NCBI GenBank assembly: GCA_049675585.1
Contig: JBAUAJ010000055.1
Coordinates: forward strand, 55,025 to 119,024
Length of the DNA stretch: 64,000 nt
Direction: 5' to 3'
Origin: Thermoplasmata archaeon
GTDB taxonomy: Archaea; Thermoplasmatota; Thermoplasmata; Lutacidiplasmatales; UBA184
The position numbers were made by a program, and so were the translations under genes. Below are positions 197-8,667 of this stretch, piece by piece (position 1 is the stretch's first letter; the number at the start of each line of letters is the position of its first letter). Below the pieces are notes generated by a model. That model was not told where the DNA came from. It saw nothing but the letters and a program-made list of their open reading frames with translations, and did not search any database.

Positions 197-1690
197 ATGC
201 CCGACACATCCACCGTTCAATCCAGCATCCCGGCCGCCCCGTCATTCGACTCGACGCGGGAGGCCGCCCTGCTCCTCCTGACGACGCTGGGGACGGTCAT
301 GGTGGCGGTCGACAGCACGATCGTCATCCTCGCGCTTCCCACGATGTCGCGGGACCTCGGATCGCCCCTCCAGACGATCATCTGGACGATCCTCATCTAC
401 CTCCTGATCGCCGCCGCGCTCACGACCCAGTGCGGGCGGGTCGGCGATCTGCTCGGACGATCGCGGGTCTACAACTCCGGGTTCGCGATCTTCACCGTCG
501 GTTCTGCCCTCTGCGGGTTCGCCCCGAACGCTCTCGTCCTCATCGCCGCCCGGGCGATCCAGGCGATCGGCGGCTCGGTGATGATCGCCAACGCCGGCGC
601 GCTGATCGCCTATGTCTTCCCGCCACAACGTAGGGGACGGTCGTTCGGTTTCTTCGTGCTCGGCTGGAGCCTCGGCGCGATCCTGGGGATCCTCCTCGGC
701 GGAGTGATCACCACGACCCTCGGGTGGCGATACATCTTCTTCATCAACCTCCCGATCGGGATCGTTGCAACGGCCCTAGGCCTGCGCTTGCTCCCGGTGA
801 CCGTGGGGCGACCGGCCCGATTCGACATACCGGGGTGCGTCAGCTTCTCCGCCTCTCTCGCCCTTCTCTGCTACGGGGCGGTCGAGATCGCGGCCTCGGG
901 GGCGAGCACGTTCTACGTCGCCTGCGTCCTCACCGGCGTGGTTCTCCTCGCGCTGTTCGCCCTCATCGAGCTGCGCACACCCGACCCGATGCTCGACCTG
1001 CGGCAATTGCGGGGCCGACTCCTCGGGTTCTCCCTCGCCTCCGGTCTTCTCCAGAGCATCGGATACCTATCGGTGATCTTCCTGCTGACGCTGTATCTGC
1101 AGGGGATCCGCGGCCTCTCGCCGCTCGATGCCTCGCTGCTCCTGATCCCGGGCTACCTCGTCGGGGCGGTGATCGGCCCCATCACCGGACGGATGGTCGA
1201 CCGGATCGGTCCGCGAGCGCTGTCGACGGCGGGGATCGCGCTGATGGGCGTCTCGGTGATCGCCTATGCGCAGATGGGTCTCTCCACATGGCTCGGCTGG
1301 ATCCCGGTCGTCTCGACCGTGAGCGGATTCGGAATCGGGATGTTCTTCCCCGCGAACACGACCGCGATCATGAGCCAGGCGCGTCCGGAGACGTTCGGCT
1401 CGATCAGCGGGCTCCGCGGGACCTTGCTCAACGTGGGTACGCTCCTCAGCTTCGTCGTCACCCTGTCGATCGCTTCGGCGAGCGTCCCCCGGTACGTCGC
1501 CTATCAGGTGTTCCTCGGCGTCGGGACGCTATCGACCGCGTACGGTCATCAGTTCCTCGTCGGGCTGCACACCGCGCTCTACGGCTCGGCCCTCGTGCTG
1601 GTCGGCGCGGCCGCTTTCTCCTGGTTCCGGGGTCGACACGATCCGGCCCCTCCCGCCTGGCGCCCGGCGGGGAACTCCCCGAAGCCGTGA
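197..1690 (+). CDS. MFS transporter, DHA2/EmrB-QacA-like (14 TM predicted)
   Basis: 497 aa with about 14 hydrophobic segments. Has typical MFS motifs (GxLaDrxGrr-like 'GRVGDLLGRSR') and a long uninterrupted ORF. Confidence 0.8.
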   Translation: MPDTSTVQSSIPAAPSFDSTREAALLLLTTLGTVMVAVDSTIVILALPTMSRDLGSPLQTIIWTILIYLLIAAALTTQCGRVGDLLGRSRVYNSGFAIFTVGSALCGFAPNALVLIAARAIQAIGGSVMIANAGALIAYVFPPQRRGRSFGFFVLGWSLGAILGILLGGVITTTLGWRYIFFINLPIGIVATALGLRLLPVTVGRPARFDIPGCVSFSASLALLCYGAVEIAASGASTFYVACVLTGVVLLALFALIELRTPDPMLDLRQLRGRLLGFSLASGLLQSIGYLSVIFLLTLYLQGIRGLSPLDASLLLIPGYLVGAVIGPITGRMVDRIGPRALSTAGIALMGVSVIAYAQMGLSTWLGWIPVVSTVSGFGIGMFFPANTTAIMSQARPETFGSISGLRGTLLNVGTLLSFVVTLSIASASVPRYVAYQVFLGVGTLSTAYGHQFLVGLHTALYGSALVLVGAAAFSWFRGRHDPAPPAWRPAGNSPKP

Positions 1691-1724: not shown

Positions 1725-2288
1725 CTAGCCGCAGCAGCCTTCCGTCGTGGAGAAGGACGGGTTGTAGGGGAACCCCTGGCAGGAGGAGCTTCCCTGCGCC
1801 GTGATCGTCACCTGGAACGAGGCCGTGACCTTCTCGCAGGAGTCTCCCGCCGCGGCGCTCAGCCCGTAGACCGCTTTGTAGGCGAACTTCTGGTTCTGAT
1901 CGAGCTGGACGTTGGGCGACGCCGAGAGCAGATTGTCGCTGTAGGTGAACACCGTGCAACCGGGCGGCAGCGTGGCGGCGATGTGGGGAACGAGCTGCTC
2001 GGGGCCGTTGCCGGTGTTCTCGAGCGTGCCGTTCAACCAGCATCGCGCTCCCGGGAACAGCCCGGTCGCGCTCGCGGTCAGCACGGAGCTCGTCACCGAG
2101 AACGAACAGTGCACCGTGTGGGGGCCGCCGGTCGTCGAAGTGGGGGTTACCCACGCGAGGCTCGGCTCGGTCTGGCACCGGTCGTCTTGACCGCGGCCCT
2201 CGTGGCATCCTCCGCCGCCCCAGGCGTAGGCTACCCCGCCGAGGGCGAGGAGGGCCGTGGCGAACGCGGCGATGACGACGAGCTTCAC
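1725..2288 (-). CDS. secreted Cys-rich hypothetical protein (N-terminal signal peptide, C-terminal GCCG)
   Basis: N-terminus MKLVVIAAFATALLALGGVAYAW is a hydrophobic signal and may be SipW-cognate-like. Ten Cys residues. Last gene of the minus-strand TasA/SipW-like operon. Confidence 0.5.
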   Translation of the reverse strand: MKLVVIAAFATALLALGGVAYAWGGGGCHEGRGQDDRCQTEPSLAWVTPTSTTGGPHTVHCSFSVTSSVLTASATGLFPGARCWLNGTLENTGNGPEQLVPHIAATLPPGCTVFTYSDNLLSASPNVQLDQNQKFAYKAVYGLSAAAGDSCEKVTASFQVTITAQGSSSCQGFPYNPSFSTTEGCCG

Positions 2289-2318
2289 TCGACCGGAGCT
2301 CCGGGGGGTCGGTTCGAT

Positions 2319-2852
2319 CTATTCGCCCGCCGTGGCGGTGAACGAGATCGTGAAGCTCATCCAGACGTCACCCGCGCAGGAGGTCGGGAACGCACCCGAA
2401 TGCAGGTACCAGTTCGTCCCGTAGGACGCCCCGGGGCCGAGGGTATCGCCCGGCGGGTCATTCGAGGTGAGCACCTCGGTGAACGCGCCGATGCTGCAGG
2501 TGGACGGCCCGTGGGTGCTGGTCGAGAGGCTCCAGGCGACGTCCTGCGCCGGAACGGTCCCGATGTTCTTCACCGTGACCGAGAGATTGAACAGGGTATG
2601 CGGCGGGGTGTTGTTGATCCAGACCTGAACGCTCGTCGAGGGGAGCGTCGTCGTCTTGAGCAGCACGTAGCCGGGCGCAGCGACCAGGCTCGCGCTCGTG
2701 ACGACGAGCCCGAACGACGCCGCGTGGGCGGAACCGTGGACGGTGGCGGAGGCCGCGAACGCCGAGAAGCCGACGCCGGCGGAGACGATCAGGACGGCCG
2801 CCACGACGAGCGGTAAGGCCCACCGGAGGCTACGCGAAGGGTTCATCGGCAC
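2319..2852 (-). CDS. TasA/camelysin-like secreted protein with SipW-cognate class signal peptide
   Basis: N-terminus ...VSAGVGFSAFAASATVHGS matches the SipW-cognate signal pattern G-x-G-aromatic-S/F-A-F-x-A-T. About 150 aa Thr/Ser-rich beta-type mature domain. Sits next to a paralog and a SipW-type peptidase. Confidence 0.6.
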   Translation of the reverse strand: MPMNPSRSLRWALPLVVAAVLIVSAGVGFSAFAASATVHGSAHAASFGLVVTSASLVAAPGYVLLKTTTLPSTSVQVWINNTPPHTLFNLSVTVKNIGTVPAQDVAWSLSTSTHGPSTCSIGAFTEVLTSNDPPGDTLGPGASYGTNWYLHSGAFPTSCAGDVWMSFTISFTATAGE

Positions 2853-2895
2853 CTCGGTGCGAGGCGCCGGGAAGCGCTCCTTCCGCGGGAGGCGT

Positions 2896-3444
2896 TCAGA
2901 TGCCCGCGCTCCCGATGTAGTAGATCGAGAAGATACCGGACGCCGGAGCGGAGGTCGACCCCGCCGGGATCCAGATGCTGATCATGTCGGTGTAGGGACC
3001 ACCGAGGGTGGTGATCGAATTCACGTTGTAGATCGGGGCGGTGGAGGTGAGCCCCGCGGTGTCGGAGACATCGTAGCAGTTGAGCGCAGCCCCGACGCAG
3101 ATCCCGGAGGTCGCGTTGAGCTGGTCGGAAAGGACGAGCGGAACCGAGCCGACGTTGGTGATGATCGCGCCCGTGGTGCAGACGCCGCCCGGCACGAGGT
3201 TCGATACGGTGAGCGTAAGGACGGTATACTTAGCATTCGAGGAGACGCCGACAATTCCCGGGGCGGGCGCTCCGGAGGCGTAGTTGCAGGACGCCGTGTA
3301 GGTCGAGGTGATCTGAAGCTGGACGTTCCCTGCCGTCGCCGTCCCGTTCACCGTCGCCGTCGCAGTGAACGCGGAGTATCCGACTCCGACGAGCCCCGCC
3401 ACGGCCAACACTGCCAACATGCCAACGACCCATCGGTTCGTCAT
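2896..3444 (-). CDS. TasA/camelysin-like secreted protein with SipW-cognate class signal peptide (putative pilin-like subunit)
   Basis: N-terminus MTNRWVVGMLAVLAVAGLVGVGYSAFTATATVNGTATAGN closely matches the TasA-type SipW-cognate signal (GxGTxAxFxDT...N.F.AG). Paralog of 2319..2852. Confidence 0.65.
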   Translation of the reverse strand: MTNRWVVGMLAVLAVAGLVGVGYSAFTATATVNGTATAGNVQLQITSTYTASCNYASGAPAPGIVGVSSNAKYTVLTLTVSNLVPGGVCTTGAIITNVGSVPLVLSDQLNATSGICVGAALNCYDVSDTAGLTSTAPIYNVNSITTLGGPYTDMISIWIPAGSTSAPASGIFSIYYIGSAGI

Positions 3445-3629
3445 AGGTTATCCCCGGGAGGCTCGCGCCTCGCAGGCCCATAGAGGGGGGAGTTTAAGGC
3501 GGGTCTGAATCGTCGGAAACGTTCGTCCGTAGCATTCGTTCGGATGGTACGCGGGCGTCGCCGGTTCGCGGATCTGCGAACTCCGGAGAGGAAACGCCCC
3601 GTACGAGCCACGGATTCCGGAAACTCGGC

Positions 3630-5045
3630 CTACTGGGCCGGCCCGGATCCCTTTGTCGCGGGCGGCCGGCTGGCTGGGGAGGGGGGCGACTTCGAAGTAT
3701 CCGACGCGGCGGCCTTCTTGTCGGGGACGTCCCAGGGGCCCAATCGCGAGTAGAGCTGGCCGAGCACGACCCACGCGGCGTCGATCCGGCCCCGCTGCGC
3801 GAGCCCGATCGCCCGCAGCAGGAGCTCCTCGGAGTCCTGGCGCAGCGAGCTCGACGGCCGGAACCAGCGCAGACGGTCGCTGATCCGGTCGGTCCATTGG
3901 ACGAAGGAGTCGAGGCTGGTCGTGTCGACGCCGGGGATGCGGGGGTACCGCTCGTGCCAGTCGCGCACCGCCGAGGTGAGCGGGCGCGCCGGGGTGGTCG
4001 TCGAGCTCTTCACGGGAACGTCGGCCGGCGAAGCGCCGCCCGAGCGTCCGCCGTGGACGAAGACGAAGGCGGTCGACCCGGAGACCACGTAGAATGAGGT
4101 GTACGCGGGATCGTTCGGCCCGGCCATGGACGTTCGCGCAACCCGCAGGATCGGAGCTCCGAGCGTGTCCGCGGCTTTGACGATGTCTTCCCAAGCACGG
4201 ACCGGAACGAGGTTGGTCGATGCGGGAGGCGCCCTCGCGTCGACGATCGCCTCCTCGTACGGTCGGGTGACCGCGGCGAGCTCGAGGGCGGGCTGCTCGT
4301 CGTGGCGGGAATCGTACGTGAGGTAGGCCATCGCACCGGCGCCGCCGAGCGCCCCGAAGAGGAGGAGGAAGGCGACGACCGAAACGTTCGCCTTTCCGAG
4401 GGTGGGGGGATCCCCCGGGAGGAAGAAGGCTCCGTTGCTGGAGAAGCTCAGTCTGGACGGAGTGATCTGGCTCTGGGTAAAGTTGAGCGAGAGAGATGGC
4501 ACGAAGCTGATCCCGGTCGCCGACTCGCCGAGCTGGGCGGAACTGTGGACGTTCGGCTCGATGATGACCGAGTAGGAACTCGGGGTGTACCCCGTCTGCT
4601 TCTCGATGGAGCTGGCAATGGAGGTGACGTTCGCCACGTTGAGGTTGTACGTGGCCCCCAGGATGAGGGTCGCTCCGTTGTGCACGGTCGTCCGGGCCGA
4701 CTCGGTGGCGATCGTCTTCGACCAATCGGGGGTCTGTATCAGGACGGAGATGGAGGCCACGCTCGTGGCGTTGATGGCGTGGTTCGCCGTGAGCCGGAAC
4801 GTGAAACTGAAGTTGACCCAGCTCGTGATCGCGGTGAATAGCGTGCCGTTCCCCGGGGTCAGGTGGGTCGTGTTGTACAGCGTGTTGTTCTTCAAGTCGG
4901 CGATGTATCCGAACTTGCCGCTCTGGGTGTAGGTGAACACCGGGGTCGGCTTGATTGTTGCCGGGTGGTCGGTCTCGGCGACCCAGTAGCCCGCGAACGC
5001 CGCGAGGCAGACGAAGACGACCAGGCCGATGACGACCGCTTTCAT
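3630..5045 (-). CDS. bitopic membrane glycoprotein of the TasA/SipW-like operon (N-terminal TM, sequon-rich ectodomain, second TM, about 200-aa cytoplasmic tail)
   Basis: Start taken at internal Met (MKAVVIGLVVFVCLAAFAGYWVA), which overlaps the upstream stop by 4 nt (ATGA). At least 9 N-x-S/T sequons in the ectodomain. Second TM is VVAFLLLFGALGGAGAMAYL. Confidence 0.55.
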   Translation of the reverse strand: MKAVVIGLVVFVCLAAFAGYWVAETDHPATIKPTPVFTYTQSGKFGYIADLKNNTLYNTTHLTPGNGTLFTAITSWVNFSFTFRLTANHAINATSVASISVLIQTPDWSKTIATESARTTVHNGATLILGATYNLNVANVTSIASSIEKQTGYTPSSYSVIIEPNVHSSAQLGESATGISFVPSLSLNFTQSQITPSRLSFSSNGAFFLPGDPPTLGKANVSVVAFLLLFGALGGAGAMAYLTYDSRHDEQPALELAAVTRPYEEAIVDARAPPASTNLVPVRAWEDIVKAADTLGAPILRVARTSMAGPNDPAYTSFYVVSGSTAFVFVHGGRSGGASPADVPVKSSTTTPARPLTSAVRDWHERYPRIPGVDTTSLDSFVQWTDRISDRLRWFRPSSSLRQDSEELLLRAIGLAQRGRIDAAWVVLGQLYSRLGPWDVPDKKAAASDTSKSPPSPASRPPATKGSGPAQ

Positions 5046-6391
5046 CCCGTGGGCCTCCGGTGAGGGAAGCGCCGAGAGCCACTGGGCCAGAAGAGGATTC
5101 CGAGGATGGCCGCCACCGCGATCGTGCCCGCGGTGAGCTCGGGGGAGAGGATGAAGAACCCCATGTACGGCACGATCACCGCGACCTTTCCGAGGACGGA
5201 GGAGTAGGGGACCGGACACGGGTCGGCCGACGGGTTCGCGTCGCCTTTGGTCGTGTAGACGGGGCCGGTCGGGCCGTTGGTGATCGCGATCACCCGATGG
5301 ACCACCGGAGACGGAAGGCAGGTCGTCGAGTAGGCGACGATCGTCCCGACCGTGATGGCGGATGCCGGGACGTGCTGGATCACGACCAGGGTGCCCCGGT
5401 GGAGGGTAGGAACCATGCTACCGGTCTCGATCGCGAGGAACGGGTGATCGGTCCCGAGGTAGTGGGGGACCCCGACGAGTACGGCGACCACCACGATCAC
5501 CGCGGCGACACCGACCCAGATCGATTCCCGCAGGGCCTTCTTCCGTCTCAACTGGCCCAGGAATCGGTCCCGTTTCGACCCAAAGGACTCGCCGAGATAC
5601 CGACGAGCGACGAGCCGGGGCTCCCGGAGCGAGGCGAGGATCAGGAGGAGCAGGACGGCGTCCGCGAAGAGGGCGATCAGGAAGACGTCGATCCAGCCCT
5701 GACTCAGCGCGACGAGCGGGAAGAAGCTCGCGACCAGGGCGCCCCCGGTGCGGAGGATGAACGGCCCGAGGATGTTGCGATTCGACTTGTAGTAGTAGAA
5801 TCCGAGCACGATCCCGAGGGTAAGCGCGAGCGCCGTGTTCGTGAGCAGGTAGCTCCCGAGCTCCACGGTCCCGAGCGAGTGGAGGACGGGGAAGTTCGTG
5901 GAGAGCAGCGCGAACATCACGGCGGAGATCCCCAGGGCCGAGGCGAAGCGGCGGGGGGCGAGCAGGCGTCCGAAGATGTAGCCGCGGAACACCGCCTCCT
6001 GACCGAGGGCGGTCAACGGGGCGAGCGCGAGGGCGTAGCCAAATGAAAGGGGAGGAAGCGGCGCGACCTTCGCGAATCCGAACGCGAATCCGGGCTCGAG
6101 CAGCACGATCGTCTGAATCAGGACCAGGCAGCCGGCGAGCCCGATCGCCGGGAGCCACGGCCTCGGGACGGAGAATCCGTACGAGGCGAGCGGAAGTCGG
6201 TCCCAGAGGGTGAACAGCAGGAAAAGACCGAACAGAGCGATCGGAACGACCAGGCCGAAGATCAGGTCGAGCCGGAGCGAGATCTTGGCGCTCTCGTAGA
6301 GGTACCCTTGTTCTATCGCGAACGCCCCAAGGAACAGCAGGAGCGGCTTCGCAAAGACGCGAGGGCGAGGGAGCCGTTCGGATCGTTCCAT
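5042..6391 (-). CDS. fusion protein: N-terminal CPBP (CAAX protease/Abi) intramembrane protease domain plus C-terminal archaeal SipW/Sec11-type signal peptidase I (S26)
   Basis: N-terminal about 280 aa is polytopic with CPBP motif 1 (GQEAVFRGYIFGRL, i.e. EExxFRG) and motif 2 FxxxH (FPVLH). C-terminal about 150 aa carries the S26 catalytic region LAIETGSMVPTL (Ser in the GSMxPT box), ...VHRVIAI..., GDAN, flanked by TM helices as in archaeal SipW. Confidence 0.6.
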   Translation of the reverse strand: MERSERLPRPRVFAKPLLLFLGAFAIEQGYLYESAKISLRLDLIFGLVVPIALFGLFLLFTLWDRLPLASYGFSVPRPWLPAIGLAGCLVLIQTIVLLEPGFAFGFAKVAPLPPLSFGYALALAPLTALGQEAVFRGYIFGRLLAPRRFASALGISAVMFALLSTNFPVLHSLGTVELGSYLLTNTALALTLGIVLGFYYYKSNRNILGPFILRTGGALVASFFPLVALSQGWIDVFLIALFADAVLLLLILASLREPRLVARRYLGESFGSKRDRFLGQLRRKKALRESIWVGVAAVIVVVAVLVGVPHYLGTDHPFLAIETGSMVPTLHRGTLVVIQHVPASAITVGTIVAYSTTCLPSPVVHRVIAITNGPTGPVYTTKGDANPSADPCPVPYSSVLGKVAVIVPYMGFFILSPELTAGTIAVAAILGILFWPSGSRRFPHRRPTG

Positions 6392-6421
6392 GGCGCCCCT
6401 CCGCCGGCGAGGGTCGTGGGT

Positions 6422-6919
6422 TCAGCGGCCCCGGCCGCTGGGACGCTTCATCGGTGGAAAGGCATCGCGAGGCGCGGTGTGTCGCGTCGGAGGCGTCCGA
6501 CCCGCCGAGATCGCCTGGGCGGATGGCCGAAGATCGGCCCACGCGAGGCGAGCGAGGAGCTGAACTGCGTCGTACGGCGGTTTCCCGCGGGCCGATCCGT
6601 TGCCACCGTTTCGAATGGGCGGCGTCAGTCGATAGAGCGTGTCGATCGCCGCGGCGACCTCCGAGCTCTTCGAGATGATCGTGTCGACGGCGCCGAGCCA
6701 CTCTTCCGCCGCAGGGGTCGCCGAAAGACCACTTCCGGTGGGCTGGAGTAGACCGAGGGATACGCCGAGCGAAGAGTACCTTTGGAACGAGACCTGGTTC
6801 AGGTTCGCCATCCCGATGATTCGGGTCTTGCGCTCCTCGTTGGTGGCGGCCCGGACGATGTCGCGGAGCACCTCGATCTTGGTCCGGTAGCGCGCGTTAT
6901 TCTCCCCGATTCTCGGCAT
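6422..6919 (-). CDS. winged-helix transcriptional regulator, HTH_45 family, with R/P-rich C-terminal tail
   Basis: Internal Met start MPRIGENNARYRTKIEVLRDIV...KTRIIGMANLNQVSFQRYSSLGVSLGLL matches the archaeal HTH_45 wHTH pattern. Immediately upstream of the SipW-fusion gene on the same strand. Confidence 0.55.
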   Translation of the reverse strand: MPRIGENNARYRTKIEVLRDIVRAATNEERKTRIIGMANLNQVSFQRYSSLGVSLGLLQPTGSGLSATPAAEEWLGAVDTIISKSSEVAAAIDTLYRLTPPIRNGGNGSARGKPPYDAVQLLARLAWADLRPSAQAISAGRTPPTRHTAPRDAFPPMKRPSGRGR

Positions 6920-7068: not shown

Positions 7069-7539
7069 TCATTCGACCCTCCCGCCGTCCTTCCGCCGAA
7101 ACAGGCGGACCGCGTCCCGAACGATACGGTCGTGGTCAAACGCGAGGGGATGGGCCGATTTCACGGGAACCCAGCCCGCCCACGATGCGTCGTCGGCCCC
7201 TCGGGGAATACCCCCGGAGCCCTGGATGAGGAACGCCACGGTCGTCACGGGCTTCCGTGGGTCTCGGGTAGGCCCTGAATAAACTCCGACTATCTTCCCG
7301 GGTCGACCGACCAATCCGGTCTCTTCGCGGAGCTCCCGCGCCATAGCGGCCTCCACGGTCTCTTCCCGCTCGACGAAACCCCCCGGAAGCGCCCACATCC
7401 CCCGAAACGGGGCCCTACCTCTCCGTACCAGCAGGATCTTGCCCCGACGTATCCAGACCGCGTCCACGGTCAGGGCAGGCCCGCTCCGCCAACGGGGCAC
7501 GCCTGGCGGACCGGGGAGTCGATTATACCGATGACCCAA
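7069..7539 (-). CDS. NUDIX hydrolase
   Basis: Nudix box GGFVEREETVEAAMARELREETGL (Gx5Ex7REUxEExGU). Confidence 0.7.
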   Translation of the reverse strand: MGHRYNRLPGPPGVPRWRSGPALTVDAVWIRRGKILLVRRGRAPFRGMWALPGGFVEREETVEAAMARELREETGLVGRPGKIVGVYSGPTRDPRKPVTTVAFLIQGSGGIPRGADDASWAGWVPVKSAHPLAFDHDRIVRDAVRLFRRKDGGRVE

Positions 7540-7623
7540 ACCCGGCTATACTCCAAGGGAGCCCCTACGCAGGCCGCTCCCAAGCAAGGATTATCCTCCC
7601 GTCCGAAGTGGCACGATTCGTAG

Positions 7624-8667
7624 ATGCAGATCCTCCGGAGCAAGGCGCCCCTTCGGATCAGCTTCGCGGGTGGGGGGACCGACGTCTCTCCCTACCCGGA
7701 GGAGAAGGGGGGTGCCGTCCTCAACTGCACGATCGACAAGTTCGCCTACGCGACCCTGGAAGCGAATCCGGACGGGCTCGGGCAGACGTCGATCGAGTCG
7801 CTCGACTTCAACATGGTCGTCAATTTCCAGATGGCGGGGGACGTCGTTTACAACGGGGAGCTCGACCTCGTGAAGGCCGCGCTCAAAGTGCTTCGAAAAC
7901 CAAAGGGTCCGACCGGGCGAGATGACTCGCTCCGCCTGTTCCTTCACTCGGACGCTCCCGCAGGCACTGGGCTCGGCAGCTCTTCTGCGATGTGCGTGGC
8001 CCTCGTGGGCGTGTTCCAGCACTACCTGAAGGAGCCGTGGACCTCGTACGACGTCTCCGAGCTCGCTTACCACATCGAGCGAGAAGAACTCGGCCTGCAG
8101 GGGGGTCGGCAGGACATGTACGCCGCCGCGTTTGGCGGATTCAACTTCATGGAGTTCAACAAGGACCGGACGATCGTCAATCCGCTCAAGATCCACCCGG
8201 AGGTGGCGAACGAGCTCGCCTACCGCCTCCTCCTCTGCTACACGGGGACCGTTCGGTTCTCCGACCGGCTCATTCAGCGGCAGCAGCAACGGTACGCGGA
8301 GAAGTCGAGCCGCACGCTGGACGCCCTCGACGGCACCAAACAGCTAGCGGTCGACATGAAAAACGAGCTGCTGCGCGGCAACATCGACGAGATGGGCAGG
8401 CTCCTAGACCAGGGATGGCAACTCAAGAAGCAGTTCGCGGATGGCATGTCGACGGATCAGATCGACTCGATCTACTCTCACGCCAAGGAAGCGGGAGCCC
8501 TCGGCGGGAAGCTGACCGGGGCGGGCGGAGGGGGCTACCTCCTCCTGTTCTGTGACTTTGCGCGTCGGGCCAAGGTTGCGAAGGCGGTACAGGATCTTGG
8601 GGGCCGCGTCGAGGACTTCGCACTCGAACCGATGGGGCTGCAGTCCTGGTCGGTCCGATCCCACTAG
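7624..8667 (+). CDS. GHMP-family sugar kinase (HddA-like D-glycero-D-manno-heptose-7-phosphate kinase / sugar-1-kinase)
   Basis: N-terminus APLRISFAGGGTDV, a GHMP ATP-binding loop PAGTGLGSSSA, and C-terminus GGKLTGAGGGGYLL, as in HddA/fucokinase-type kinases. Confidence 0.65.
   Translation: MQILRSKAPLRISFAGGGTDVSPYPEEKGGAVLNCTIDKFAYATLEANPDGLGQTSIESLDFNMVVNFQMAGDVVYNGELDLVKAALKVLRKPKGPTGRDDSLRLFLHSDAPAGTGLGSSSAMCVALVGVFQHYLKEPWTSYDVSELAYHIEREELGLQGGRQDMYAAAFGGFNFMEFNKDRTIVNPLKIHPEVANELAYRLLLCYTGTVRFSDRLIQRQQQRYAEKSSRTLDALDGTKQLAVDMKNELLRGNIDEMGRLLDQGWQLKKQFADGMSTDQIDSIYSHAKEAGALGGKLTGAGGGGYLLLFCDFARRAKVAKAVQDLGGRVEDFALEPMGLQSWSVRSH

Follow-up and report, generated by a model that had tools for sequence, protein, structure and literature searches.

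A conserved fusion of a degenerate CPBP-like membrane domain with an archaeal-type signal peptidase in a putative surface-filament locus of Thermoplasmata

Gene clusters for archaeal surface filaments with their own type I signal peptidase (SPase I) are already known as the Tafi and AbpX loci, a dedicated SPase I of the "ten-TM" type (TM, transmembrane helix) has been reported in a January 2026 preprint, and for the pairing of a CAAX pseudoprotease with a signal peptidase there is one bacterial precedent. Here we describe a locus that recalls all of these, on the minus strand of positions 1725-6919 in a 64,000-nt stretch from an uncultured soil archaeon of the Thermoplasmata (GCA_049675585.1, contig JBAUAJ010000055.1, positions 55,025-119,024 of the forward strand), which is called the window below. 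Its central gene encodes a fusion protein in which a polytopic N-terminal domain (N-domain) of the CPBP family is joined to an SPase I. In a preliminary description of the same DNA this protein had been presented as a fusion without a described precedent that carries two proteolytic activities. Because Tafi (PMC11821415), the "ten-TM" SPase I of AbpX loci and the SpbR-SpsB pair (PMC12260438) had already been described, that claim of novelty was overstated, and the residues of the N-domain mark it most plausibly as a CPBP pseudoprotease, for which the name protease is not appropriate. Within the literature searched, it appears to be new that the polytopic part of an archaeal peptidase is recognised as a degenerate CPBP domain, that Thermoplasmata have the CPBP-peptidase partnership in a conserved fused form and also as a split gene pair, and that a Thermoplasmata lineage possesses a family of uncharged subunits.

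Active CAAX/CPBP proteases are defined by the three motifs EExxxR, FxxxH and HxxxN/D (PMC12260438). SpbR of Staphylococcus aureus is a polytopic CAAX-like protein in which these motifs are degenerate (HELYMR, FIYLD and QIVAI) and which has no protease role (PMC12260438); it binds the TM helix and the ectodomain of the signal peptidase SpsB and inhibits cleavage in vivo and in vitro (PMC12260438, PNAS 2025). Neither fusions nor archaea are mentioned in that paper (PMC12260438). Our fusion and the SpbR-SpsB pair are alike in that a degenerate, apparently non-protease polytopic partner of CAAX/CPBP type accompanies a type I signal peptidase, and their first motifs are alike in having lost the first Glu and kept the second Glu and the Arg (HELYMR and QEAVFR). 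In S. aureus, however, there are two proteins and the peptidase is a housekeeping P-type enzyme of the Ser/Lys class, whereas the archaeon has one polypeptide, or adjacent genes as in the locus L090 described below, a Ser/His peptidase of the endoplasmic reticulum (ER)/archaeal type, and an operon that appears to be dedicated to a surface structure; the two systems are likened here by their descriptions and motifs. SpdC and LnsB are further non-catalytic CAAX-like polytopic partners of envelope enzymes in S. aureus (PMC12260438), but in the SpdC-SagB and LnsB-LnsA pairs the enzyme accompanied is a glucosaminidase or an acyltransferase rather than a signal peptidase, and no fusion joins the partners.

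In the Tafi clusters (TafA-G) of haloarchaea, to which clusters in Thermococcales and Archaeoglobales are related, TafD is a dedicated SPase I whose deletion blocks pilin processing, TafG, next to it, is a DUF5305 protein, TafB is a regulator, and several paralogous subunits assemble by strand donation (PMC11821415, PMC12337348). An SPase I, a DUF5305 protein, a regulator and paralogous subunits are also the contents of the present locus. The two differ in that TafD, with four TM helices and an Ig-like domain at its C-terminus, is without an N-terminal CPBP-like domain; haloarchaeal Tafi subunits use the Tat pathway, and no sequence similarity between Tafi subunits and those of the window was detected. 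The AbpX loci, known from Pyrodictium abyssi and its homologs, contain a subunit of the TasA superfamily, a dedicated TIGR02228 SPase I described as having ten TM helices, a DUF5305 protein and subunits of minor and tip type; a transcription factor is present in some (10.64898/2026.01.04.697558). They have the ten-TM SPase I, the DUF5305 protein and the (here putative) minor or tip subunits in common with the window, but AbpX proteins contain about 15% Asp plus Glu with an isoelectric point (pI) of about 4 and have an acidic residue at mature position 4, whereas the window subunits contain 2.5-6.7% and protein A has Ala at that position. In the main text of the AbpX preprint the extra helices are not identified as CPBP/CAAX (0 occurrences) and Thermoplasmata are unmentioned (10.64898/2026.01.04.697558). 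The tapA-sipW-tasA operon of Bacillus subtilis is similar in placing a dedicated ER-type peptidase beside beta-sandwich matrix or pilus subunits with a TasA-like N-terminus, but SipW is without a polytopic N-domain, and the AbpA/AbpB locus of Pyrobaculum calidifontis (PMC9245690) is, unlike the window, without a dedicated peptidase.

The region has a G+C content of about 67% and its minus strand contains six co-directional open reading frames (ORFs; Table 1), at the positions that the preliminary description had indicated. The fusion protein exceeds the cut-off of Pfam family PF02517 (Rce1-like/CPBP; 36.3 bits against 22.4, residues 117-213) and also that of NCBIfam family TIGR02228 (archaeal signal peptidase I; 94.9 bits against 51.85, residues 291-434), so that the reported presence of a CPBP and an S26 domain in one polypeptide is borne out. 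A search of 5.8 billion proteins gave 67 clusters of about 450 amino acids (aa) with the same architecture and with identity down to 38%; the 65 full-length homologs that were aligned reach down to 35% identity. In a profile search of 1.84 billion representatives, full-length members numbered about 21 at the 50% identity level. When one genome per GTDB species was scanned, full-length matches were found in about 27 species, all of them metagenome-assembled genomes (MAGs) of Thermoplasmata, while matches outside Thermoplasmata covered the peptidase part only; the closest database relatives are likewise Thermoplasmata MAGs. The database search for this domain architecture that had been suggested in the preliminary description thus reveals a conserved family.

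The order of an HTH_45 gene, the fusion gene, the DUF5305 gene and one to three genes for small secreted proteins is kept in five further loci. In the window the ATG of the DUF5305 gene, at 5045, and the stop codon of the fusion gene share an ATGA overlap, and this 4-nt overlap is kept in four of the five loci (L001, L002, L003 and L005). A 185-nt gap separates the DUF5305 gene from the genes for the small secreted proteins. Because of the 65 full-length homologs, their spread over about 27 species and the conserved gene order, a frameshift or mis-assembly as the origin of the fusion, which had been named as a possible objection, is excluded, and we consider it practically certain that the fusion is real.

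The structure of the fusion was modelled by AlphaFold2 on the 65 full-length homologs, to which all residue counts given below for the fusion family also refer. In the model (mean pLDDT 85.7), eight helices over residues 10-254 are followed by a short helix (259-266), a long helix (275-312, with its hydrophobic part at 285-312), a beta domain (318-407) and a last helix (417-434). The charges of the loops obey the positive-inside rule with the N-terminus and the linker inside, the peptidase domain outside and the C-terminus inside; as modelled, the fusion is a protein of ten TM helices with both termini in the cytoplasm and the peptidase domain on the outer face, and in this inferred topology motif 1 of the N-domain sits in the cytoplasmic half of TM4. 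In a Foldseek search against PDB, the N-terminal part matched Rce1 (4CAD; E 1.5e-4, prob 1.0, about 270 columns, TMt 0.54-0.60) and SpdC (6U0O_A; E 6e-4, prob 1.0, TMt 0.66), and the C-terminal part matched SEC11C (7p2q_A; TMt 0.70). Because of the matches to Rce1 and SpdC, we regard the N-domain as a true CPBP-fold domain. The alternative that it consists merely of extra TM helices of a SipW, which had been raised in the preliminary description together with a failure to score against PF02517, is ruled out by the Foldseek match and by the Pfam cut-off. The threshold of PF02517 is passed also by the relatives in loci L022 and L026 and by stand-alone N-domain relatives, and a CPBP ancestry of the N-domain is held with high confidence.

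The N-domain has the eight-helix fold and a detectable homology in common with Rce1, but it differs from Rce1 in that all four catalytic residues are replaced. For Rce1 of M. maripaludis we take the catalytic set to be E140, H173, H227 and N231 (Manolaridis et al. 2013). When a profile of fused and stand-alone N-domains was compared with the PDB sequence set, Rce1 (4cad_C) was the sole match, and a weak one (E 0.016, residues 11-258); a narrower N-domain profile gave no match among the PDB sequences. By this mapping E140 of Rce1 falls on Q131 of the window protein, H173 on S164, H227 on R214 and N231 on A218, and the neighbouring E141 and R145 fall on E132 and R136. The preliminary description had called the CPBP domain complete and had cited EExxFRG and FxxxH as its motifs. 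The actual residues of motif 1 are QEAVFRG, and the motif-2 position reads FALLS with S164 in the place of the His. The string FPVLH at 167-171, which fits FxxxH, lies off the motif-2 position and is a chance match, its His being present in 7 of the 65 homologs.

The same replacements run through the family. Position 131 is Gln in 41 of the 65 homologs, Glu in 14 and Gly in 5; position 164 is Ser, Thr, Ala, Leu, Gly, Asn, Val or Gln and never His; and position 214 is Arg in 47, with Leu, Ala and others in the rest and again never His. No homolog has a His within three residues of either catalytic His position (0/65), only two have the full EExxxR, and E132 and R136 are both lost in 21. A canonical CPBP gene with EExxxR, FxxxH and HxxxN/D was not found in the window and 85 loci, and no locus protein was found to have a C-terminal TM or a tripartite sorting tag. 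Judged from these residues, the N-domain very probably performs no catalysis of the CPBP type. The second, glutamate-type intramembrane cleavage that had been proposed for it, and the C-terminal maturation of the subunits that was offered as its use, find no support: the catalytic positions are replaced, and no protein of the locus has a removable C-terminal TM tag.

The N-domain is nevertheless clearly under purifying selection, as its residue pattern indicates. Its mean pairwise identity among the homologs is 0.40, and G72, P100, G101, F106, G137, S156, F160, T165, N166, G209, P210 and W233 are invariant or nearly so, the most conserved stretch being the extracellular loop EPGFxFGF at 99-106. 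The linker at 255-284, with at least six Lys plus Arg, is conserved above this level (0.57). In the peptidase domain S325, H365, D384, N386 and D390 are invariant in all 65 homologs; S325 stands in GSM, H365 in VHRV, and D384 and D390 in GDAN...D. In a phmmer comparison with human SEC11A/C (E 1.7e-9) the Ser of the SGSM motif, the His of VHRV and the GDxN..D motif were aligned. The peptidase therefore looks active as far as its residues can tell, and the pattern is that of a conserved pseudoenzyme joined to an active enzyme. The designation of the peptidase as SipW can be kept in part: the SipW equivalog NF046067 gives 47.6 bits, far under its cut-off of 190, and the enzyme is SipW-like only in the broad sense of belonging to the common ER-type class. 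The structure of the peptidase domain also distantly resembles SipA of Streptococcus pyogenes (4n31_A; Foldseek).

The N-domain occurs also as a protein of its own. A profile search gave stand-alone N-domain proteins of 271-291 aa (P0108, P0111, P0112, P0115, P0130 and P0145), of which the first five are all above the PF02517 cut-off. The catalytic His residues are absent from all of them, and all end in a basic ...EPxxxRRRYGLEG, which is the linker motif of the fusion. The stop codon of P0112 is real, the contig ending 58 nt further on; P0105 was rejected as a stand-alone protein, being cut by a contig end. At L090:242-1368 the gene for P0130 (291 aa), a stand-alone degenerate CPBP-like protein, is followed 2 nt on by a separate SPase I gene, the product of which begins MKTRHHKKRR...AISGQSMNPTLEDGDL; the contig ends inside the peptidase gene. 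Because the same pair exists in fused and in split form, a physical partnership of the N-domain and the peptidase is indicated.

A more distant clade of fused proteins (P0124, P0154, P0189 and P0201; 367-422 aa) has a homologous N-domain (hhalign 97%, E 8e-11) in which motif 1 is wholly erased, for example to LLFNLNTKKL, and in its peptidase part the GDAN motif reads G(V/I)(A/N)N. Near the gene for P0201 (L087:6001-7233) are an HTH_45 gene and small unannotated ORFs, the neighbours being at 4254-5879, 7230-7742 and 7997-8281; DUF5305 is not recorded in locus L087.

The membrane protein encoded next to the fusion matches DUF5305 (PF17231) with 43.2 bits against a Pfam cut-off of 29. It had been described as sequon-rich and bitopic, of which the former is correct, since it has eight N-X-S/T sequons, seven of them extracellular and the eighth at the edge of the second TM; the latter is not, since a hydropathy scan places TM helices at 4-22 and at about 221-239. 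The order of its parts is an N-terminal TM, an extracellular domain, the second TM and a cytoplasmic domain of about 230 aa, and the same architecture is reported for DUF5305 proteins in the AbpX preprint (10.64898/2026.01.04.697558). An accessory role beside SPase I has been proposed for DUF5305 because it is sometimes fused to SPase I (10.64898/2026.01.04.697558), and such a role has been proposed also in PMC11821415; the window protein is thus a putative accessory subunit of the peptidase.

The regulator had been assigned to HTH_45. In the window the winged helix-turn-helix (wHTH) protein scores 23.8 bits against PF14947 (HTH_45), just under the cut-off of 25.5 (residues 62-121 of the long ORF), and 32 bits against the NCBIfam family Sso10a_fam, also below cut-off. 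Orthologs with an HTH_45 record directly precede the fusion gene in L002, L003, L005 and L088, and those of L002 and L005 run 4 nt into its start. The ORF in the window is open to 7072, and the first 51 codons of this long form are of low complexity; the start is likely to be the ATG at 6919. The ATG of the long form overlaps (ATGA, 7069-7072) the stop of an upstream Nudix-like ORF at 7069-7539 of the minus strand.

The peptides quoted from the small secreted proteins in the preliminary description, GVGYSAFTATATV and GVGFSAFAASATV, are present in them as quoted. Proteins A and B share a conserved signal peptide and a conserved N-terminal motif, with W5 and G20 in the former and A30-T31-V32 in the latter invariant or nearly so, and they have a common putative cleavage site before AF, after GVG(Y/F)S. 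The mature N-termini are alternating in character (AFTATATVNGT in A and AFAASATVHGS in B). They resemble the N-terminus of TasA, in which ...TWA is followed by the mature AFNDIK. B is 28-29% identical to the family of A, with the N-terminal motif and a C-terminal TA(T/S)AG in common, and has an ortholog in L002. A profile search extended this pilin family by three sequences only, none of which has a Pfam annotation.

An AlphaFold2 model of protein A, built on a shallow alignment of 17 sequences, shows a confident beta-sandwich as its core, where pLDDT exceeds 90 over residues 40-180, while residues 16-35 are disordered (pLDDT below 50), as would be expected from the model of an unpaired donor strand. 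The best structural match of protein A is AbpA; Foldseek gives further the pilin domain of PapG (prob 0.92-0.96) and the TasA fibre (8aur_A; prob 0.93, E 1.6e-2). These fold matches are weak, and generic beta-sandwiches score like pilins. No window protein matches PF12389 (camelysin, Peptidase_M73) at E up to 1, and for TIGR04088 protein A gives 16 bits against a cut-off of 19 and protein B no match. Among the 21 members of the pilin family there are eight sub-threshold matches to PF12389 (best E 0.031) and five to TIGR04088, and these two are the only recurrent families. Of the earlier label "TasA/camelysin-like", the TasA-like signal peptides and N-termini stand, whereas the camelysin match does not and the match to the SipW-cognate signal remains sub-threshold. 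From the gene context and these weak but convergent signals, membership of the subunits in the TasA superfamily is likely. Membership in AbpX was considered and is ruled out by composition (protein A has a pI of 4.05 and 2.5% Asp plus Glu) and by the Ala at mature position 4 of A, while the aromatic residue at mature position 2 that characterises AbpX is present as Phe.

The Cys-rich protein belongs to the same fold family, since its family aligns with the pilin family by hhalign (97.6%, E 3e-12); it is without the N-terminus of the AFTATATV type. It has orthologs in L002, L003 and L005 and is a candidate tip or minor subunit. Directly after its signal peptide there is a Gly/Cys-rich stretch (GGGGCHEG...DRC), and its Cys residues may serve in disulfide bonds or metal binding. 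The ortholog at L003:9145-10434 (429 aa) has about 240 extra C-terminal residues, in which at least three tandem repeats of about 75 aa (YSVTFSESGLP...NGTYAYSIAG...) follow the pilin-like domain, which points to a tip protein of the adhesin type. The C-terminus reads ...EGCCG in the window (1725-1745) and ...GDCCH in the ortholog at L002:12238-12810, whereas L003 and L005 have lost or never had the di-Cys. The tail ...EGCCG was considered as a CAAX-like substrate motif and set aside: the domain is without catalytic residues and the tail is not kept in those two loci.

Taken together, the locus is rather probably an operon for the biogenesis of a surface filament of the TasA-superfamily type, of the Tafi/AbpX kind, in which the CPBP domain is a non-cleaving partner. 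For two of its parts we are a little less confident: that the subunits form a donor-strand filament is favoured only slightly over the opposite, and the same holds for a scaffold or gating role of the N-domain, which is drawn from analogy. The regulator would control the operon, and the peptidase and the DUF5305 protein would be made in coupled amounts and form a complex in the membrane. The subunits, presumably the substrates of the peptidase, would be exported by Sec and cut after GVG(Y/F)S by the Ser/His/Asp ectodomain, and the new N-terminus of A and B, of the form A-F-x-A-x-A-x-V, would act as a donor strand and drive polymerisation. The CPBP domain would cleave nothing and would instead anchor and orient the TM helix and catalytic domain of the peptidase, and it would probably restrict or promote the access of cognate signal peptides, either by docking the signal peptide of the pilin or by gating. 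The fusion would then be a covalent counterpart of SpbR-SpsB, with parallels in SpdC-SagB and in the accessory subunits of the eukaryotic signal peptidase complex. Several points weigh against this account. The scaffold or gating role rests on the analogy with SpbR-SpsB, and SpbR is an inhibitor, whereas the effect of a domain fused to the peptidase within a biogenesis operon might instead be activation or targeting of the enzyme. The mapping onto Rce1 depends on a weak profile match, although it agrees with the Pfam match range and with the structural match. E132 and R136 are kept in 44 of the 65 homologs and T165/N166 are nearly invariant, so that the N-domain may have a non-canonical chemistry or bind a ligand. 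If the "ten-TM SPase I" of the AbpX loci contains the same domain, the observation is partly in the literature already.

The kept E132 and R136, the above-cut-off PF02517 score and the fold match to Rce1 could also be taken in favour of a bifunctional protease, in which an active CPBP domain cuts the fibre subunits or the DUF5305 protein a second time, for instance for C-terminal maturation or anchoring, and the S26 domain removes the signal peptide. CPBP proteases that sort C-terminally tagged surface proteins do exist, myxosortase being one (PMC11980579), and the Cys-rich protein has its ...EGCCG end. We consider this very improbable. The catalytic Glu is Q131, both His and the Asn are absent in all 65 homologs, and the FxxxH once cited is off-position; E132 and R136 themselves are lost in a third of the family while the rest of the domain is still conserved. 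A substrate with a C-terminal TM or sorting tag is missing from the locus, motif 1 is in the cytoplasmic half of TM4 by the inferred topology and the subunits are extracellular, and CAAX-like proteins with similarly degenerate motifs (SpdC, LnsB and SpbR) are experimentally non-catalytic (PMC12260438).

Two further readings accept a domain that does not cleave, or leave its role aside. The N-domain could be a platform for substrate handling and assembly, which keeps hold of the cleaved signal peptide, or of the pilin N-terminus just formed, and delivers the donor strand to the growing filament; cleavage would be coupled to polymerisation, and the fusion with the DUF5305 protein would be a minimal pilus assembly machine. 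In the conserved cluster nothing like a chaperone or an usher is encoded, conservation of the subunits is unusually high over the signal peptide and roughly the first ten mature residues, the N-domain is at its most conserved in an extracellular loop (E99-P-G-F-x-F-G-F106) beside the expected position of the peptidase ectodomain, and the SipA that the peptidase domain distantly resembles is a peptidase homologue needed for pilus polymerisation in S. pyogenes. This reading is purely inferential, however, and we think it doubtful: published papers report chaperone-free polymerisation in vitro for TasA, AbpX and cannula subunits, SipA-type proteins are inactive peptidases whereas the window peptidase keeps its catalytic residues, and filament formation by the subunits is unproven. 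Equally doubtful is the more specific proposal that the N-domain, more than a passive anchor, selects substrates and couples cleavage to assembly in a minimal archaeal pilus machine: it would bind the conserved pilin signal peptide in the former active-site cavity, present it to the peptidase and pass the donor strand directly to the growing fibre. Somewhat less unlikely, but still not favoured, is that the small secreted proteins are ordinary beta-sandwich proteins of the surface or matrix, such as adhesins or S-layer-associated proteins, and that the locus is a dedicated module for secretion and processing. The sub-threshold PF12389 and TIGR04088 results, the weak and generic fold matches and the absence of the acidic composition and acidic position 4 that define AbpX would fit such proteins. 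On the other side, the set of SPase I, DUF5305 protein, regulator and paralogous subunits of 150-200 aa, including a divergent "tip-like" one, matches the experimentally characterised Tafi loci and the AbpX loci, and the mature N-terminus is like the AFNDIK donor strand of TasA and disordered in the monomer model.

With a pseudoprotease partner as the favoured reading, the idea of a second protease gives way to that of a CPBP pseudoprotease which naturally accompanies a type I signal peptidase, either fused to it or encoded separately. The conserved archaeal fusion provides independent "Rosetta-stone" evidence that the partnership of CAAX-like proteins and signal peptidases is widespread and is not tied to the bacterial Ser/Lys enzyme, and it offers a single-chain object for the structural study of how a polytopic partner shapes access to a signal peptidase. 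For a dedicated SPase I of the "ten-TM" kind in a TasA-superfamily locus, the N-domain also points to one possible identity of the eight additional helices, and a soil lineage of Thermoplasmata with uncharged, Cys-containing subunits is added to the archaeal loci of the donor-strand-filament type. If the N-domain does select and present the pilin signal peptide as in the more specific, doubtful proposal above, pairs of a CPBP pseudoprotease and a signal peptidase (SpbR-SpsB in Firmicutes, the fused and split forms in Thermoplasmata) would represent an ancient means, found across domains, of making signal peptidases specific for their substrates, comparable in function to what accessory subunits do for the eukaryotic enzyme.

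Table 1. Features of the window locus (window positions) and second-class polytopic peptidases in other loci (locus:positions). A hyphen within a signal peptide sequence marks the putative cleavage site.
Feature	Position	Strand	Remarks
wHTH regulator, putative (HTH_45 / Sso10a-like)	6422..6919	-	starts MPRIGENN...
Fusion protein, polytopic, 449 aa	5042..6391	-	PF02517 + TIGR02228
Fusion residues 1-254, eight-helix CPBP/Rce1-fold membrane domain	5630..6391	-	degenerate catalytic motifs
Fusion residues 255-284, conserved cytoplasmic linker	5540..5629	-	strongly basic (REPRLVARRYLGE...)
Fusion residues 285-449, ER/archaeal-type signal peptidase I	5042..5539	-	TM anchor, extracellular catalytic domain, C-terminal TM
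DUF5305 protein, 471 aa, putative signal-peptidase accessory subunit	3630..5045	-	PF17231
Pilin-like secreted protein A, 182 aa, candidate major subunit	2896..3444	-	signal peptide ...GVGYS-AFTATATVNGT, beta-sandwich core
Pilin-like secreted protein B, 177 aa, paralog of A	2319..2852	-	signal peptide ...GVGFS-AFAASATVHGS
Cys-rich secreted pilin-fold paralog, 187 aa, candidate tip/minor subunit	1725..2288	-	9 Cys in mature part
Second-class polytopic SPase I	L045:1486-2676
Second-class polytopic SPase I	L057:5317-6447
Second-class polytopic SPase I	L064:5362-6570
Second-class polytopic SPase I	L077:1343-2518
Second-class polytopic SPase I	L079:5167-6297
Second-class polytopic SPase I	L082:1365-2540
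Second-class polytopic SPase I	L084:3024-4145

In the surroundings of the cluster, an MFS transporter gene (197-1690, plus strand) converges on its end and a GHMP-kinase-like gene (7624-8667, plus strand) lies just upstream. An MFS gene adjoins the cluster also in L001 and L002, and a GHMP kinase gene and glycosyltransferase genes adjoin it in L002. These neighbours hint that the wider synteny is partly conserved and possibly tied to glycosylation.

A second class of polytopic SPase I was also encountered, with 374-403 aa, about eight hydrophobic segments before the S26 domain and no C-terminal TM (Table 1). Its hosts are Clostridia, Bacilli, Syntrophomonas, Saccharibacteria and one Thermoplasmatota MAG. 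Its N-terminal part gives no Pfam hit, and hhalign comparisons with the CPBP-like domain gave 4% and 0.1%; because homology to that domain is undetectable we treat it as a separate class, which may be the "ten-TM SPase I" of the bacterial AbpX loci.

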